Positions 31,951 through 64,000 of a stretch of 64,000 nucleotides of DNA are shown here, piece after piece; position 1 is the first letter of the stretch; every line of letters begins with the position of its first letter. This DNA is from Planctomycetota bacterium (GTDB lineage: Bacteria; Planctomycetota; UBA11346). The position numbers were made by a program, and so were the translations under genes. The notes beneath the pieces are model-generated. The model worked only from the letters and a program-made list of their open reading frames with translations. It did no database searches and was not told the origin of the DNA. The DNA lies in assembly GCA_038231435.1 (NCBI GenBank), contig JBBRLJ010000017.1, positions 32,001 through 96,000 of the forward strand, read 5' to 3'.

Positions 31951-32499
31951 CTAGTAGCGGTTGAGGCCGACCGGGTGCGCGAGCGGAGGTCGCGAACGGT
32001 GGCCCTGCTGATCGCGCTGCGGATCCACCAGTACCGCACGGCCATCGCGCAGGATCACGTACGAGGGATGCGCTGGATCCTGGCCGGCGACGCGGATCAC
32101 CTCGGTGTCCACGCCTTCCGCCAACGGCCCGTTCGGCGGCATCGCCGCAAGCTTGGCGGCGAGCGTGGAGTCGCCGTGCGAGGCCGTCGACCACGCGGCG
32201 CCCACCAGCAGCAGCAGGGTCGCGGCGATAGCGGCCGCCCAGGCGCGCGGCAGCCGATAGCGCAGGATACGGGGCCCGTGATCGGGAATGCCATGCTCGA
32301 GCGCCAGGGACACCAGGTCGTGGCGGGCGAGGCTCTCTTGGCAATCGCCGCAGCGCGAGAGATGCGCGAACAGCGCCGGGTCGCCCTCGGCGTCGAGCGT
32401 GCCGTCGGCGACCAGCGCCAGCAGCGCCTCGGCCTCGTCGCAGGCGAGCTCGCGGTCATCTGGTCCGCCACCAGGAAGAGTTGCCAGGGGATCGCTCAC
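31951..32499 (-). CDS. Zinc-binding (ZAS/zf-HC2) transmembrane anti-sigma factor
   Basis: HLSRCGDC (Hx3Cx2C) followed by a TM helix; overlaps the ECF sigma stop. Confidence 0.85.
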   Translation of the reverse strand: MSDPLATLPGGGPDDRELACDEAEALLALVADGTLDAEGDPALFAHLSRCGDCQESLARHDLVSLALEHGIPDHGPRILRYRLPRAWAAAIAATLLLLVGAAWSTASHGDSTLAAKLAAMPPNGPLAEGVDTEVIRVAGQDPAHPSYVILRDGRAVLVDPQRDQQGHRSRPPLAHPVGLNRY

Positions 32500-56985: not shown

Positions 56986-58257
56986 CTACAGCTTGATTTC
57001 CGGCTTCCTCACCGCCACGCCGTAGGCGCCGAGGGCGGTGGCCAGCTCCTGAACCACGCTCTGGCCGCTACCGGGCGCGCGGTAGAGGTCGAGGTCGGTG
57101 TACTGGGCGAGGTCGCCGATGCGCGAGACGCCGAGGTCCTCGAGCACCTTGGCGGTGCGGTTGGCGAGCTCGAGCTTCTCGACCGATTCGCCGAGGATCT
57201 TCTGGTCGGCCTTCGAGATCGAGCGCTCGTCGCCCTCGCGGAACATGCCCAGGCGCAGGTTGCGCGCCGCGAGCATCTCTTTCACTTCCTTCAGCGAGGT
57301 CTCGCCGAAGTTCTTGTACGAGAGCATCTCCTGCTCGGTGATGCGCAGCAGGTCGCCGAGGGTGAAGATGTTCATCTTCGCCAGGCAGTTGCGCGAGCGC
57401 ACCGACAGTTCGAAGTCGTTGACCGAGGTGCGCATGATCTTCTCCATGCGCTCACGCTCGCGCTCCTCGCGCTCGTCGTAGTACATGGAGCGCGAGGCCT
57501 TGGCGTCGCGCAGCAGGGTGAGCGCGCGGCGGTCGCGCGGGTTGTAGGCCAGCACTTGGCGGAAACAGTCGAGCGCCGCGTTGGATTCCCCGCGCTCCTC
57601 GTAGAGGATGCCCAGGTTGGTGACGGCCGGCAGGTAGGCGGGAGAGGCGTCGGCGCACACCAGGTAGTGCTCGGCGGCGAGATCGTCGTCGCCGATGCGG
57701 TCGAGCAGGACGCCGATCTTGAAGGCGGCTTCGACGTGCTGCGCGTCGGCTTCGAGCGCGGCCTCGAAGGCCTTGATGGAGGCCTCGATCTGCGAGCGGG
57801 CCTCGAGGATGCGGCCATTGAGGAAGTCGCGCTCGGCGCCCTCGGCGACGCTGGCGAGGGCCTTCTCGGCGGCTTCATCGTCGCCGCCATCGAGCAGCGC
57901 GCGCACCAGTTCGCCCTTGGCCTCGGTCATGGTCTTGGCCGCGATCTGGAAGGCGGTCTTGGCGTCGCCGTACTCGCCGAGCTCGGCGTTGATCATGCCG
58001 AGCAGGGCCTGGCCGTAGGCGTCTTTCGGATCGATCATCTCCTCGGCGTCCGAGAACTTGCCGAGCGCGAACGCCAGCGCGGCGGTGCGCAGCTTGTCCT
58101 TGACCCCGGGGATGCCGTCGGCCAGCAGCGCGGCGAGCTTGGTGCGCTCCTCGGCATCCTGGGTCGCGACGCGGCGCAGGACCCGCACCTGGGCGAGGGT
58201 CGGGCGCTCGGGCGCGGTGAGGATCTGGGCGCTGCGGGGAAGGGTGGCGGTGGGCAT
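56986..58257 (-). CDS. TPR protein with two RNA polymerase alpha-CTD-like domains
   Basis: TPR-like helices, then FELSVRSRNCL..MNIFTLGDLL..TEQEMLSYKNFGETSL.EV, then a second degenerate copy LELANRTAKVL..IGDL. Confidence 0.88.
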   Translation of the reverse strand: MPTATLPRSAQILTAPERPTLAQVRVLRRVATQDAEERTKLAALLADGIPGVKDKLRTAALAFALGKFSDAEEMIDPKDAYGQALLGMINAELGEYGDAKTAFQIAAKTMTEAKGELVRALLDGGDDEAAEKALASVAEGAERDFLNGRILEARSQIEASIKAFEAALEADAQHVEAAFKIGVLLDRIGDDDLAAEHYLVCADASPAYLPAVTNLGILYEERGESNAALDCFRQVLAYNPRDRRALTLLRDAKASRSMYYDEREERERERMEKIMRTSVNDFELSVRSRNCLAKMNIFTLGDLLRITEQEMLSYKNFGETSLKEVKEMLAARNLRLGMFREGDERSISKADQKILGESVEKLELANRTAKVLEDLGVSRIGDLAQYTDLDLYRAPGSGQSVVQELATALGAYGVAVRKPEIKL

Positions 58258-58492
58258 GGCTGACCTCGATCTGGGTGCTCCCGCGCGCCCTGGACCCATG
58301 GCCAGGGCCATGGAAGGGGTGCGGGAGATTGGTGCTGGCGGAGAAAAGGGCTCACACGATAGCGGTGAGGGAGGCGGGGCAAGGGGGGGATGGACGGAGG
58401 ACCGTCGTCTGGGGAGGGAAGGACCGCCGTCCGTCTGTCGTCATCCGGCGATAACGGCAAGCCGACAGACCACGGTCGCCATCCGGGACGCC

Positions 58493-59707: not shown

Positions 59708-59918
59708 GGCGAGCCTCCTGGGGAGTCGTATCGTTGCTCGCCATCGTGAGATGCAAGGCGGCGACTGGGGGATTCCGCGAGCATGATGTATGCCGATATG
59801 GCAATTGCAGCAGGAGGGGGCGGGCTACACTCCGCGCCATGCCACGGAAGGCCATACGACGAGGACCCGCCCGCGCGTCCGTCCGTGCTCATGCATCGCC
59901 ACTGCTGCGTGGTCGTGC

Positions 59919-60482
59919 ATGAGCGGCAGCGATCCTGCCGCCACCCCCGCCACCCCCGCCGCCTTCCGCCATTGGGGCCGGTGGTTTTGGCCCGTGGCTC
60001 TGAGCGTGTTGGTGCTCGATCAGCTGACCAAGTGGTGGCTGTTCGCTCTGCCCGGCAATACCCGGCTGCCGACGTGGATCCTGCCTGCCCAGAACTCGGG
60101 GGTGGCCTGGAGCATCGGCCACCAGTGGCCCTGGGCGGTGACGCTGGTCACGGCGCTGCTGCTGCCCGCGCTGGCCTGGGTGTGGTGGCGATGGTTCCGT
60201 CCGCTCGGCGCCTGGGAGAACCTCGCCTTCGGCGGCATCCTCGGCGGTGCGCTCGGCAACGGCTTCGATCGCGCGTGCGCGCGCCTCGACCTGTTCCATC
60301 TGCGCGGCGTCCGTGATTTCATCAACATCGATCTGGGTTTCTGGCCAGCCCACCCGTGGCCGACGTTCAACATCGCCGATGCCGGCATCACCGGCGGATT
60401 CCTCGTCCTGGTGGCGCTGACATTCCGCAAGCCGAAAGCCGCGACCGCCCATGCCGGCATCGTGGCCGTGTCCGACCGCTAG
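59919..60482 (+). CDS. lspA: Lipoprotein signal peptidase (SPase II)
   Basis: LDQLTK, NSGVAWS, GGALGNGFDR, VRDFI, WPTFNIAD. Confidence 0.95.
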   Translation: MSGSDPAATPATPAAFRHWGRWFWPVALSVLVLDQLTKWWLFALPGNTRLPTWILPAQNSGVAWSIGHQWPWAVTLVTALLLPALAWVWWRWFRPLGAWENLAFGGILGGALGNGFDRACARLDLFHLRGVRDFINIDLGFWPAHPWPTFNIADAGITGGFLVLVALTFRKPKAATAHAGIVAVSDR

Positions 60483-60515
60483 CTTTTTTCTTCAGGTTTC
60501 TCTAGGAGCAGTTTC

Positions 60516-63500
60516 ATGCGTTTCAATCCGATCGCCCGCGAATTGGTCTGCAAAGTGGTCTACTACGGCCCCGGACTCGCCGGCAAGACCACCAACATGC
60601 AGGTGGTGCACGATCGCGTGCCGCCGCAGCAGGTCACCGAGCTGGTCAGCGTCGACACCCATTCCGAGCGCACGCTGCACTTCGACTGGCTCGCGCTCGA
60701 TGTCGGCCAGGTCCAGGGCGTCAACGTGCGCTTCGAGATCTTCACCGTGCCCGGGCAGAATTATTACGCCGCGACCCGCCGGCAGGTCCTGCAAGGCGCC
60801 GACGGCGTGGTGTTCATCGCCGACAGCCGCCGCGAGGCGCTCGACGAGAACATCGATTCGATGAACGAGATGCTGAACAACCTCAGGCACCACGGCCTGC
60901 CCGAGGACCTGCCGGTGGTGATGCAGTACAACAAGCAGGACCTGCCGAGCGCGCTGCGCCGCGAGCAGCTCGAGCCGCTGATGAACGTGCGCGCCTGGCC
61001 GAGCTTCGCCGCCACCGCCACCGCCGGCGACGGAGTGATGGAGACCGCGCACGCGATCTCGTCGCTGGTCGCCGAGCGCGCCACGCGCCTGGGCTCGCCG
61101 GTGCCCAGCGACGTCGCCCAGCAGAGCCAGCAGCCGGTTCCCGGCCAGAGCTGGCTGATCTCGTGCTACCGCTGCCAGACCATCCTCGAGGTCCCCAACG
61201 CCAACATCGGCTCGGTCTACACCTGCGGTGTATGCGGTTCGACGCTCGAGGTCACCGACACCGAGCGCGGCCTGACCCGGGCGCCCTCGGCGAGCCAGGA
61301 TGACAGCGGCGGCTACGCCCTGCAGAGCGCGTCGCAGTCGCCCGATGCGGGCACCAGCGCGCTCTCGGGCTCGCGCACCCAGCCGATCGAGCGCCAGGTG
61401 GCGCTCGCCGACGGCCCGGGTTTCGACCTCGAGGGCTACGACGTGGTCGCGACGCTCGACGAATCCGTTCAGGGCCGCCGCGTCCGCGTGCGCGAACGCG
61501 CCACCGGGCGCACGCTGCGCGCCTTCACCGTCTCGCCGCAGTTGATGCGCCAGCCCGGTTACCGCGACAACCTCGAGCCGTACGTGCGCATGGCCGGCCC
61601 GATCAAGCATCCCAACGCGCTGCCGCTCGCGAACCTGAGGCCGACCCACGACAGCGCCGTGCTCTTGAGCATCGATCCGCCGGATCATGAGCCGCTCGCG
61701 CACGTGCTCGCGCGCCGCCGCGCGCTCGCGCCGCCGCACGCCATGGGCCTGTTGCGCCAGCTCGCGCTCGCGCTCGAGGAAGCCGCGCGGCATGGCGTCG
61801 TCCACGGCTGGCTGCGCCCCGACGTGGTGCTGGTCAGTCCCGACGGCAATGCGCTGCTCGACGAGCTGTGCCTGCCGAAGAACCACCGCTTCCTGGTGCG
61901 CGAGCTCTCCGGAGCCAGCGCCGCCACCGAATACTACCTGGCGCCCGAGCATCTCGGCGACGACTCGCGCAGCGACCTGCGCTCGGACATCTTCGCGCTC
62001 GGCGCGCTGCTGTTCCGCATGATCACTGGCGAGGGTCTGGTCACCGGCTACAGCGCGCACGAGGCGCTGCACAAGGTGGTGGCCAACGGTCCGCGGCCGC
62101 TGCGTTCGACCCAGGCCGGCGTCAGCCGCGACCTGGACCTGTTCTATCAGCGGCTGGTGGCCGCCGAGCGCAAGGACCGCTTCCAGAACTACCGCGAGGT
62201 CATCGACGCGCTCGACAAGTTCGGCGGCGGCGCCAAGCGGCAGACGCTGCGCCTGACCGGCACCGTGGCCAATACCGGCACCGGTCGCGCGGGCCGCTCC
62301 ACCGCCAACGCGCACATCGCTCGCCGCGCCACCGGCGGCTCGGGCAACTATGCCGGACGCCCGCGCTCGGGCGGCGGCACCGGCCCAGCCACCGGCTCCA
62401 TCCGCAAGAAGGACGACAGCGGCGTGGTGATGGCGGTGGTGGTGGTGTGCGTGCTGCTCGCGGTCGCGCTGATCGCGGTGATGGTGATGAACCAGTCGCA
62501 CTCGTCGGGCTACACCGGGCAGAGCCAGGCCGAGAGCCCGAAATCCAAGTTCGATCCGCCAACCGTCACGCGTCCGATCTCGAGCCCGCCGGCGGGATTC
62601 ACCGGCGGCACCACGACCGGCGCCACGGCCGGAACGTCCGGTACGCCGCGCGCGGCAGTCACCACCGCGACCGGCGGGGCAACTGGCGGAGGGACTGGAG
62701 GCGAGGCGCCCGCGCCGCTCACCGCGGCCCAGCGCAGCGACCTGCTGCACCAGATCGCCGACATGCGCACCGAGGAGCGCTACCAGGCCGCGATCGGTCT
62801 GGCGGCGAAGTTCGATTCGGCCGAGGACCGCGACGCGCTGCCCAAGGCGATCCTCGCCCAACGCGACCTGCGCAAGAAGGACATCGAAGCCGCGGTGGTG
62901 AACAGCGTGGATCTCGAGCTGATCAAGAAGCTCGTGCAGCCCGCCCAGTCGACCTGGGGCCTGCCCGGCGACGCGGATTGGGCGAACAAGCTGGTGACCA
63001 CCGCCGCGGCGCGCATCGCCGCGGCCACGCCGGAAGTCGGCCCCATCGGCGAAGTGCCGAAGCCCGTCCCGGTCGAGGTCTCGCCGATCACCGGTCGCCC
63101 GCTCGCGGTGCAGCCGGCAGTCGTTCCGCCGGTGACTCCGCCCGTCGCCACGCCGAACGCCACGCCGGCTTCGACCCAGCCGGCCTCGCCAGCAACGACT
63201 CTGAGCGATCCGGCTGCCCAGTCGCTGATCCTGGTCGACCAGGCGCTGCTCGCCTACGCACCGATCGCGGCGCAGCAGGCGATCACCCCGCTCGACGCCC
63301 AGTCGGGCGAGGCGCGCGCGCTCAAGCACGAGATCGACTGGTGGAACCGCCGCATGCCGCTGCTGAATCGCGCGGCGCAATCCGGCAAGGTGAAGATGCG
63401 CATGCCGCATCCGACCACCGGCGAGATGTGGGACGTGCTCGGCGGCGACGCCACCAATGTCGATGTCTCGAATCCGGGCGGCAGCAAGTCGACCCTGCCG

Positions 63501-64000
63501 TGGACGCAGTTCGCTCCCAAGGACATCGCCAAAGTCTTCCAGGAAGCGGCCAACCTGCCTGACGTCACCGGCGAGGAGAACGCCACCGCGGCGATCATGC
63601 TGATGCTCGCGGGCGACCAGACCCAGGCCAGCCTGCAGATCCGCAAAGCCAAGCCGACCATCGACGCCGATCTCGGCGCCGACCTCGACACGCTGATGGG
63701 CCTGCACCGCCGCCGCGACCTGGTGGACGTGCTGGCCAAGGGCAGCGACGCGCTGAAATCGGGCAATGCCAAGGGCATCGCCGACGCGCTCGCCGAGCTG
63801 CGCAAGGCCGACAAGCCGACGCAGGCCGCGCTGGCGTCGCAGATCGCCAAGCTCGATGAAGCGCAGCAGAAGCTCGCCGTGGCCAAACCGGCGACGCCCG
63901 CGGGCACTCCGGCGGTGACGCAGGGCAAGGACAAGGTGACCTTCGACGGCCTCGATGACCTCACCGCGTTCCCGGACACCGAGGGCAAGTGGCAGGTCAA
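60516..64000 (+). CDS. Partial multidomain protein: MglA-like small GTPase + Zn ribbon + Ser/Thr pseudokinase + TM + extracytoplasmic region (runs past window end)
   Basis: Translated by hand with no stop to 64000; AGGAG SD at 60504. Motifs: CKVVYYGPGLAGKTTN, ERTLHFD, FTVPGQ, GADGVVFIADS, YNKQDLP; CYRC-x16-CGVC; KHPN, VVHGWLRPD, YLAPE, SDIFALG; TM at 62424-62489. Confidence 0.93.
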   Translation, partial: MRFNPIARELVCKVVYYGPGLAGKTTNMQVVHDRVPPQQVTELVSVDTHSERTLHFDWLALDVGQVQGVNVRFEIFTVPGQNYYAATRRQVLQGADGVVFIADSRREALDENIDSMNEMLNNLRHHGLPEDLPVVMQYNKQDLPSALRREQLEPLMNVRAWPSFAATATAGDGVMETAHAISSLVAERATRLGSPVPSDVAQQSQQPVPGQSWLISCYRCQTILEVPNANIGSVYTCGVCGSTLEVTDTERGLTRAPSASQDDSGGYALQSASQSPDAGTSALSGSRTQPIERQVALADGPGFDLEGYDVVATLDESVQGRRVRVRERATGRTLRAFTVSPQLMRQPGYRDNLEPYVRMAGPIKHPNALPLANLRPTHDSAVLLSIDPPDHEPLAHVLARRRALAPPHAMGLLRQLALALEEAARHGVVHGWLRPDVVLVSPDGNALLDELCLPKNHRFLVRELSGASAATEYYLAPEHLGDDSRSDLRSDIFALGALLFRMITGEGLVTGYSAHEALHKVVANGPRPLRSTQAGVSRDLDLFYQRLVAAERKDRFQNYREVIDALDKFGGGAKRQTLRLTGTVANTGTGRAGRSTANAHIARRATGGSGNYAGRPRSGGGTGPATGSIRKKDDSGVVMAVVVVCVLLAVALIAVMVMNQSHSSGYTGQSQAESPKSKFDPPTVTRPISSPPAGFTGGTTTGATAGTSGTPRAAVTTATGGATGGGTGGEAPAPLTAAQRSDLLHQIADMRTEERYQAAIGLAAKFDSAEDRDALPKAILAQRDLRKKDIEAAVVNSVDLELIKKLVQPAQSTWGLPGDADWANKLVTTAAARIAAATPEVGPIGEVPKPVPVEVSPITGRPLAVQPAVVPPVTPPVATPNATPASTQPASPATTLSDPAAQSLILVDQALLAYAPIAAQQAITPLDAQSGEARALKHEIDWWNRRMPLLNRAAQSGKVKMRMPHPTTGEMWDVLGGDATNVDVSNPGGSKSTLPWTQFAPKDIAKVFQEAANLPDVTGEENATAAIMLMLAGDQTQASLQIRKAKPTIDADLGADLDTLMGLHRRRDLVDVLAKGSDALKSGNAKGIADALAELRKADKPTQAALASQIAKLDEAQQKLAVAKPATPAGTPAVTQGKDKVTFDGLDDLTAFPDTEGKWQV

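Follow-up and report, generated by a model that had tools for sequence, protein, structure and literature searches.

The DNA analyzed here, which we call the window, is a stretch of 64,000 nucleotides from a Planctomycetota bacterium (positions 32,001 to 96,000 of contig JBBRLJ010000017.1, assembly GCA_038231435.1). It forms part of a contig (C17) of a genome (G000) of 5.2 Mb that is 88% complete. At the end of the window, between lspA (signal peptidase II) and a PIN-PhoH gene, lies one long open reading frame (ORF) whose product combines, in this order, an MglA-type GTPase, a zinc ribbon, a Hanks-fold pseudokinase, a single transmembrane (TM) helix and an ectodomain. An initial annotation, made from the letters of the window, had proposed this series of domains and a single frame open from the ATG at 60516 to the window end, and both proposals are borne out: the frame holds 1161 codons in the window and, in the full contig, continues to a stop codon at L004 6835, equivalent to window position 64835, to give a product (P0002) of 1439 amino acids. 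All 56 aligned relatives share the first methionine. The spacing reported between the end of lspA and this ATG was likewise found (Table 1).

Table 1. Coordinates of the fused gene, its domains, its upstream neighbor and related genes (window positions unless a locus is named)
Feature	Coordinates	Strand	Residues and remarks
lspA (signal peptidase II)	59790..60482	+	Pfam Peptidase_A8, E 3.4e-24; ends 33 nt before the ATG
ORF of the fused protein (P0002)	60516..64000, and onward 835 bases past the window	+	1439 residues
MglA-type small GTPase domain	60516..61100	+	1-195; phmmer versus PDB, AF2 model
Zinc ribbon	61146..61283	+	211-256 (C217, C220, C237, C240); flanks SWLI...LEVxDxxRGLTRAP conserved
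Disordered Ser/Gln/Ala/Gly-rich linker	61284..61415	+	257-300; pLDDT <50 at 260-301; median identity 25%
Hanks-fold pseudokinase	61416..62240	+	301-575; Pfam Pkinase, E 6e-9, 36 bits (cut-off 31.7)
Juxtamembrane linker	62241..62420	+	576-635; Gly/Thr/Ala/Arg-rich (G 25%, R 12%); pLDDT <50 at 578-628
Single TM helix	62421..62489	+	636-658; only Kyte-Doolittle window >1.6
Low-complexity Thr/Gly/Ala/Ser/Pro stalk	62490..62729	+	659-738; median identity 12.5%
Ectodomain, helical part	62730..63920	+	H1 739-840; Pro/Ala-rich linker 841-895; H2 plus small β subdomain 896-1135
First ConA-like sandwich (start only)	63921..64000	+	both sandwiches (1136-1294, 1295-1439) mostly beyond the window, L004 5921-6832
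Large ribbon-kinase relatives	L144 3703-7362; L145 2554-6075; L146 3736-7476; L147 3991-7770		other Planctomycetota families

The same domain order recurs in many relatives. A search with residues 1-640 returned 105 further clusters (P0003-P0107; E ≤ 1.4e-100, 37-84% identity, 790-1575 amino acids). Most of them carry precomputed Arf plus Pkinase domains, and the order is the same throughout; below them ranked a single Arf-only protein, followed by generic kinases (E ≥ 3e-22). Recurrence of one order in 105 clusters excludes chance as its origin. In their source databases these clusters bear the names 'protein kinase [Planctomycetota bacterium]' or, at JGI, 'mutual gliding-motility protein MglA', and the named relatives all belong to Planctomycetota metagenome-assembled genomes, in agreement with the planctomycete origin suggested earlier. 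Conservation was counted in an alignment of 107 rows, with a 56-row alignment used for the invariance of M1 and of the ribbon cysteines, and per-domain identities were calculated against the 86 members of at least 1200 amino acids. Median identity is 66% for the G domain, 64% for the zinc ribbon and 67% for the pseudokinase, compared to 12-25% for the linkers and 28-33% for the domains of the ectodomain. A conserved cytoplasmic part with a variable ectodomain is typical of a signaling core with a fast-evolving outer face.

We analyzed the distribution of the fused gene with residues 205-600 as query in 401 genomes across the phylum, which are relatives rather than independent samples. Strong matches were obtained in 23 of the 23 sampled genomes from the bacterium's own GTDB family (E 1e-37 to 1e-174, 42-78% identity, frames mostly 960-1560 amino acids), and there were none in the ∼377 other Planctomycetota genomes, where the best match (E 1.8e-29, 22-33% identity) represents ordinary kinases. 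At a threshold of E ≤ 1e-20, 233 of the 401 genomes are hit; we rejected this figure as a count of the family, as the hits outside the bacterium's own family are generic kinases. The fused gene is a core gene of its uncultured planctomycete family.

Contigs from three DNA runs of one study, one of which may be the source sample, tile positions 60400-64000 without inserted or deleted letters. A single contig (X2 record 11, 60964-61670) bridges the junctions between G domain, ribbon and kinase fold, and another (X1 record 7, 62060-64000) bridges those between kinase fold, TM helix and ectodomain. Two 'joints' in this tiling could be read as deletions; this reading was rejected, since their sides span 20-21 letters and come from single metagenome contigs, which we take to represent other organisms or repeats. 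Among proteins shorter than 791 amino acids, 12 matches were found, most of them on short contigs, and none is a relative with split genes: they are truncated copies in the same order, or fragments with the kinase-like part, the TM part or both. The initial annotation had raised three possibilities against its own reading, namely a frameshift, relatives in which GTPase and kinase are separate genes, and an already characterized family of this architecture. None of these emerged from the contigs, proteins and literature searched.

The N-terminal domain belongs to the MglA family. In a phmmer search of the PDB, the first 205 residues matched MglA of Myxococcus xanthus and Thermus thermophilus at E 4e-50 over residues 4-189 (∼50% identity), and the next-best match was Arf at E 1e-9. 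Pfam holds no MglA model, and its scan reported Arf at E 3e-8. Residues 1-628 were modeled with AlphaFold2 (AF2) from 56 sequences (mean predicted local distance difference test, pLDDT, 82.7; predicted TM-score, pTM, 0.51), and the modeled G domain superimposes on MglA 6h17 with a Z-score of 30.3 and a root-mean-square deviation (rmsd) of 1.5 Å over 189 residues. The motifs lie where they had been placed from the sequence: GPGLAGKTT at residues 18-26, ERTL with R52, TVPGQ at 77-81 and NKQD at 139-142. The first of these fits the G1 consensus GxxxxGK[ST], with K24 kept in 101 of 101 non-gap rows. According to the 2011 structure paper on MglA, its defining features are 78TxxGQ82, the intrinsic Arg53 and Gln82 (PMC3199381). 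Here, T77-V-P-G-Q81 aligns with TVPGQ of both reference proteins (T77 in 98/102 rows, Q81 in 96/102), and R52 aligns with the intrinsic arginine finger, Arg53 in switch I (101/102). N139 and K140 are each found in 102 of 103 rows and D142 in 101. Phe57 and Phe59 are named in the same paper as residues of MglA that contact MglB (PMC3199381); they correspond here to F56, kept in 95 of 102 rows, and to position 58, where the residue is hydrophobic (L, F, W or M). By every mark of sequence and fold, including the long switch I and β0, this is an MglA-family domain. With all catalytic residues of MglA present and strongly constrained, the G domain is predicted to be catalytically competent.

Two further criteria concern size and gene context. 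The 2015 survey of prokaryotic small GTPases used a single-domain length of 150-240 amino acids, which the 1439-residue protein far exceeds. Under the second, a roadblock gene within four genes of the GTPase, the neighbors here are lspA and the PIN-PhoH gene. Absence of such coupling does not exclude membership in the MglA family, because orphan MglAs are known.

The zinc ribbon follows the G domain, and its cysteines lie at the positions originally assigned to them (61164-61235). CxxC-x16-CxxC is present in 101 of 107 rows, the six misses being N-terminally truncated fragments and the Arf-only protein, and the four cysteines are invariant in 56 of 56 rows. In the AF2 model the ribbon has four strands (pLDDT 84-92). 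Pfam Zn_ribbon_LysW matches it at E 0.0019, below the cut-off. Disorder is predicted at residues 201-210, before the ribbon, and at 260-301 and 578-628, on either side of the kinase-like domain.

The kinase fold had been located correctly in the initial annotation, at residues ∼300-575. Its best matches are PknE, PknB and PknA, with PknE reached by sequence at E 1.5e-17, and the model of residues 298-573 aligns with PknA (4x3f) at a Z-score of 28.4 over 258 residues, indicating a bilobal kinase fold. In the PknE alignment, HGWLRPDV stands opposite HRDVKPEN and DEL opposite DFG. These substitutions are family-wide. H430, G431, W432 and R434 each occur in 106 of 107 rows, so that HGW replaces HRD; R335 occupies the position of the β3 lysine (VAIK) in 105 of 105 rows; and D449 (106/107 rows) is followed by E and by L or F, so that DE[LF] replaces DFG, while APE is retained. 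The catalytic-loop asparagine is missing (position 437 is V, A, C, I, S or T), and LDESVQGRR, which has one glycine, is what remains of the Gly-rich loop. R322 and R324 are conserved in 102-104 of 107 rows. The usual sequence definition makes the domain a pseudokinase, one under strong constraint. NCBIfam models for MAD6, PknB_PASTA and PglW also hit it, far below their cut-offs (e.g. 77 versus 460 bits); we regard these as generic kinase-fold matches and rejected membership in a defense system. In a predicted complex of MglA plus ribbon (residues 1-258) with the pseudokinase (residues 298-578), the score was 0.00, a value obtained without controls and giving no verdict.

A conserved motif, FGGGAKRQTLRLT, comes directly after the pseudokinase (residues 569-581, 62220-62258), ahead of the juxtamembrane linker. 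It is near-invariant, with F569, G570-572, A573, R575 and T581 each at ≥90%. That its threonine, with leucine at +3, resembles phosphothreonine sites bound by FHA domains, as in the tail of the MviN pseudokinase, is pure speculation.

The linker and the single TM helix are present as originally described, and exactly one hydrophobic segment is found in 100 of 107 rows. The RKK sequence N-terminal to the helix, and the need of a GTPase for cytoplasmic GTP, imply a topology with the N-terminus inside and the C-terminus outside. The part beyond the helix had been placed outside the cytoplasm, which agrees with this topology, and its size had been estimated at just over 500 residues, which was too small: the full frame gives it 781. 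An AF2 model of residues 739-1439 has a mean pLDDT of 90.5, with a disordered linker at 841-895. The best-conserved motif of the ectodomain is HPTTxExWDV, in H2. In a VIA-align comparison the first sandwich (residues 1136-1294) matched L-type lectins and the lectin domains of sialidases, with ERGIC-53 (4ygb; Z 16.9, rmsd 2.6 Å over 156 residues) and BT_1020 (5mqr; Z 16.9) at the top, as well as CBM40, CBM66 and GH16 domains (Z 15-16), and the top Foldseek match of the ectodomain was a tandem jelly-roll protein (4jqt, E 8e-10). As modeled, the first sandwich is a ConA-like lectin/glucanase fold. The GH16 motif ExDxxE is absent from the protein sequence. Botulinum and tetanus neurotoxin chains also ranked high in Foldseek, because their binding domains share the common lectin-like jelly roll; with TM-scores of 0.15-0.18 and 8-12% identity, a relationship to toxins was rejected. 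Equally without meaning is a match of DUF3729 to the ectodomain at E 4.8.

The ectodomain has few relatives. Searched alone against 1.84 billion representative proteins, it matched only 60 at E ≤ 0.001. At least 1000 amino acids in length, 28 of these carry the match in their C-terminal part, and most of the short ones look like fragments. The scarcity of matches suggests that the ectodomain is essentially private to the fused family. P0163, P0169 and perhaps P0141 may be free membrane-anchored relatives of it. An atlas search with residues 895-1135 returned only unnamed 'hypothetical protein' clusters (0.90-0.91) and gave no lead.

MglA (PDB 5ymx, 6h17 and 3t12) is normally a free protein of ∼195 amino acids, usually encoded beside mglB. 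The domain described here has the same TxxGQ motif, intrinsic arginine finger, catalytic glutamine, NKxD motif and fold; it differs in forming the first seventh of a membrane protein of 1439 amino acids, in having no linked mglB and in belonging to a clade set off by a well-supported branch (see below). The M. xanthus protein SofG, an orphan paralogue of MglA, is comparable as a second MglA that exists beside canonical MglA and MglB and has extensions and an arginine finger (PMC4316618), but it is a soluble protein of 239 amino acids without kinase fold, zinc ribbon, TM helix or ectodomain. A second point of comparison is GltJ of M. xanthus, likewise a membrane protein, whose zinc ribbon lies in the cytosol and which also has a flexible linker and a periplasmic domain. 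The GltJ ribbon is reported to bind MglB and raise GAP (GTPase-activating protein) efficiency fourfold, with MglA-GTP binding the adjacent linker (PMC11135422). In that system MglA stands on its own and the linker leads to a GYF domain, whereas in the fused protein MglA is present in cis and the pseudokinase stands in the place of GYF, for which there is no Pfam match in the protein at E ≤ 1.

ROCO proteins (LRRK2, bacterial Roc-COR) also combine a Ras-like G domain and a kinase fold in one chain. The fused protein differs in lacking leucine-rich repeats, in its dead kinase and in being of membrane receptor type. Pfam Roc scores 18.7 bits on the G domain, below its 27-bit cut-off and far weaker than the match to MglA, and a COR domain has no Pfam match at E ≤ 1. 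Moreover, only 105 residues separate the G domain from the kinase fold, 46 of them ribbon and the rest mostly disordered, which leaves no room for COR. Since COR is absent and the G domain is not of Roc type, the protein is not a ROCO protein, as the initial annotation had held.

In its order of cytoplasmic kinase fold, one TM helix and extracytoplasmic ligand-binding domain, the protein resembles PknB, PknE and MviN (M. tuberculosis, ActPs3). MviN likewise joins a pseudokinase to a carbohydrate-binding outer domain (PMC12599244). None of these receptor-type Hanks kinases and pseudokinases carries a GTPase. As judged from the text descriptions in a 2025 review, the combination of HGW, arginine and DE[LF] appears to fit none of the seven bacterial pseudokinase families, which include GLW, ActPs, DLHK, CP1 and DYD (PMC12599244); among them, the GLW family is proteobacterial, with GLW for HRD and Leu/Trp for the lysine (PMC12599244). 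Actinobacterial conservons (CvnA-D) bring together an MglA-family GTPase, a membrane sensor kinase-like protein and a roadblock protein, but as four separate proteins, with a sensor of histidine-kinase type and in Actinobacteria (PMC4316618). The full-text literature searched, outside which lie most subscription journals, contains no description of MglA fused to a kinase-like domain, nor of a protein with the architecture as a whole, consistent with the claim made earlier that none had been described. Sequences of more than 240 amino acids were left out of the 2015 survey of prokaryotic small GTPases, whose main text contains no word beginning with 'Planctomyc' (PMC4316618). The main texts of a paper on the kinase expansion in Planctomycetota and of a preprint presenting an atlas of bacterial Ser/Thr kinases (bSTKs) mention neither GTPases nor MglA, and that of the preprint makes no mention of Planctomycetes. 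The sequences have already been made public under generic names, and the new element is that the architecture and its conservation are recognized.

We placed the fused G domains in a tree of 68 domains (IQ-TREE, LG+C20, unrooted), sampled from the 107 fused members (26 domains), from the 28 loci of a canonical MglA paralogue found in the same family (14) and from ∼70 loci of stand-alone MglAs of other taxa (28); L031 was dropped for a stop codon. All fused domains lie on one side of a branch of length 0.64 with 100/99 support, three of them on long branches, and the canonical paralogue of the family groups with other Planctomycetota MglAs (99/95). The tree shows that the fused domains form a distinct, fast-evolving subgroup and says nothing of its age. 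Other Planctomycetota families contain relatives of the ribbon plus kinase part at 22-25% identity, with a similar CxxC-x16-CxxC ending in LEVV and a kinase domain scoring 130-145 bits. The GTPase is absent from them, its place being taken by a helical N-terminal domain or left empty. In L144-L146, HRD is replaced by HGD or HHD and DFG by NLG, GFG or MGL, and the N-terminus is a helical repeat of ∼160 amino acids. L147 has the ribbon, an apparently active kinase (185 bits; VALK, HRD, DLG) and a TM helix. L144-L147 may represent the type of scaffold to which MglA was added. From these relatives we infer that the MglA domain was joined to the N-terminus of a ribbon-kinase-TM-ectodomain scaffold and that the kinase then lost catalysis.

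The position of the fused gene is conserved. Among the loci of 17 relatives, lspA lies directly upstream in 16 and the PIN-PhoH gene directly downstream in 15, with a class-III aminotransferase further upstream in 10; beyond the PIN-PhoH gene nothing is conserved. One genome holds a second copy of the fused gene without lspA or PIN-PhoH as neighbors. The initial annotation had noted the lack of an upstream mglB. This is correct, with the addition that a search of the whole genome for Roadblock/LC7 (PF03259) gave three matches, none near the fused gene and all on contig C33, beside a second mglA of canonical type (C33:35270-36853, L010 5270-6853). This second MglA is 48% identical. Its 527 amino acids comprise a G domain, a disordered stretch of ∼170 residues, a single TM helix and a tail rich in Pro and Ala; besides the three roadblock-domain matches, a DUF4388-TPR-PQQ protein flanks it. 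No zinc ribbons were found in the C33 roadblock proteins. The canonical-type paralogue occurs in 31 of 31 genomes of the family (51-100% identity, frames of ∼400-545 amino acids), 28 of which have at least two matches. Both MglAs of the lineage may thus be membrane-anchored.

These results suggest the following model. Fixed in the membrane, the MglA domain would, when GTP-bound, recruit cytoplasmic effectors to a site, and hydrolysis, aided by the roadblock (MglB-type) GAPs encoded on C33, would release them. The ectodomain would bind an envelope glycan or another periplasmic ligand, and the pseudokinase would serve as a conformational or dimerization scaffold, as in receptor kinases. By analogy with GltJ, the zinc ribbon may recruit the GAPs, the two ribbons sharing a domain class only. 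We are confident of the architecture and of its conservation. The complete statement, a membrane-anchored MglA switch on a receptor-pseudokinase scaffold that works in the way just described, is tentative, and we would put it slightly short of an even chance. The roles offered in the initial annotation, that of a receptor by which an external signal reaches the switch or that of a landmark of polarity or division, are drawn from the architecture, and the opposite direction of signaling or a purely scaffolding role would fit the data equally well.

Several observations weigh against the model. At a pTM of 0.51, the mutual placement of the cytoplasmic domains is not confidently predicted. The lectin fold modeled for the first sandwich does not show glycan binding, and Pfam gives no family match on the ectodomain at E ≤ 10. 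The ribbon matches PDB sequences only generically (best E 0.02, to the ribbons of LysW and TMEM55), and the ribbon searches gave no specific sequence similarity to GltJ. The locus has no linked roadblock, effector or motility gene, and the conserved neighbors, lspA, PIN-PhoH and aminotransferase, suggest nothing about function. SofG is reported not to be stimulated by MglB (PMC4316618), so the action of a roadblock GAP in trans is not assured here. Finally, a divergent branch of the family (P0130, P0145, P0147, P0151 and P0165) has lost the arginine finger and carries TLSGR for TVPGQ (TISGQ in P0147). Its members keep the ribbon, TM helix and ectodomain, have HGF, HGY, HGH or HAL for HGW, and in two cases have arginine for the P-loop lysine. 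With the arginine finger and mostly also the catalytic glutamine gone, their G domain is probably non-hydrolyzing, and GTP hydrolysis appears not to be needed for every member.

This divergent branch, together with the lack of any GAP or GEF (guanine nucleotide exchange factor) gene linked to the locus, is what would be expected if the MglA domain were a permanently nucleotide-bound or nucleotide-independent module for structure or dimerization, and the protein a static envelope scaffold. We think this improbable: the main clade, which includes the fused gene, keeps the residues for binding and hydrolysis in 96-101 of 102 rows, a pattern hard to explain without hydrolysis. About equally improbable, in our view, is that the kinase-like domain has an atypical enzymatic activity (non-canonical phosphotransfer or, like SelO or SidJ, AMPylation or glutamylation) and is controlled in cis by the GTPase in a ROCO-like manner. 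The former active-site residues (H430, G431, W432, R434, R335, D449, R322 and R324) are almost invariant, beyond what a scaffold would seem to need, and bacterial pseudokinases with new activities have been described (PMC12599244); yet catalytic aspartate, catalytic-loop asparagine and β3 lysine are all missing, the Gly-rich loop is reduced, and the domain scores 36 bits with Pfam Pkinase, compared to 130-185 for the planctomycete ribbon-kinase relatives.

Signaling could also run from the inside out, with the nucleotide state of MglA controlling the periplasmic ectodomain in adhesion or envelope attachment, as MglA acts on GltJ at focal adhesions. GltJ, which has a similar layout, is switched by MglA-GTP (PMC11135422), and surface machines are plentiful in this genome, which encodes ten secretion/pilus ATPases of T2SSE type. 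Against this stand the absence of a GYF domain, of Glt/Agl genes nearby and of specific similarity between the ribbon and GltJ, and one TM helix would conduct a signal poorly whichever way it ran; we consider this explanation, too, rather unlikely. Finally, the long frame could be an artifact, either a misassembly or frameshift that joins separate genes or a chance frame, as G+C-rich DNA yields long spurious frames, and indeed a frame of 1071 amino acids runs antisense over the same stretch, a usual by-product of such sequence. This possibility we regard as negligible, being refuted by the 105 clusters of the same order, the indel-free bridging contigs, the contig-end fragments that keep the order and the confident folding of all domains.

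MglA is the model Ras-like polarity switch of bacteria and, in all studied cases to our knowledge, is a free cytosolic protein placed by diffusible GAPs and effectors. If the proposed membrane-anchored switch is real, covalent fixing of MglA to the membrane would be a different means of positioning a GTPase within the cell. The architecture would also be one of few bacterial cases outside ROCO proteins in which a G domain and a kinase fold are combined, and it suggests that a GTPase switch is coupled directly to the cell envelope. Little is understood of how Planctomycetota establish cell polarity or divide without FtsZ, and the present genome has no match to FtsZ_C (PF12327) at its 88% completeness, compared to matches in 13 of 14 control genomes. 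A core gene of an uncultured family in such a phylum provides a concrete, testable candidate. Fused forms of MglA have escaped surveys limited to proteins below 240 amino acids. The boldest version of the idea, that this is the first prokaryotic 'receptor-GTPase', a lineage-defining core protein in which MglA is hard-wired through a pseudokinase and TM helix to a periplasmic glycan-binding domain and serves, anchored in the envelope, as a spatial landmark for polarity, growth or division, strikes us as a long shot.

Three minor observations concern the surrounding DNA. One of the T2SSE ATPase genes lies 5 kb downstream of the fused gene (L004 12175-13440) and is not syntenic in relatives. Near the contig end, ∼10 kb past the window, there is a tyrosine recombinase (Phage_integrase plus SAM-like N domain; L004 16560-17639, minus strand); given the lack of conserved synteny from the PIN-PhoH gene to this recombinase, the stretch between them may be a variable or mobile region. 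Within the window, positions 56986-58311 (minus strand) encode a 441-residue protein that joins TPR repeats to two RNA_pol_A_CTD matches (E 1.6e-29), an odd combination, as the C-terminal domain of the RNA polymerase α subunit is normally found only in RpoA.

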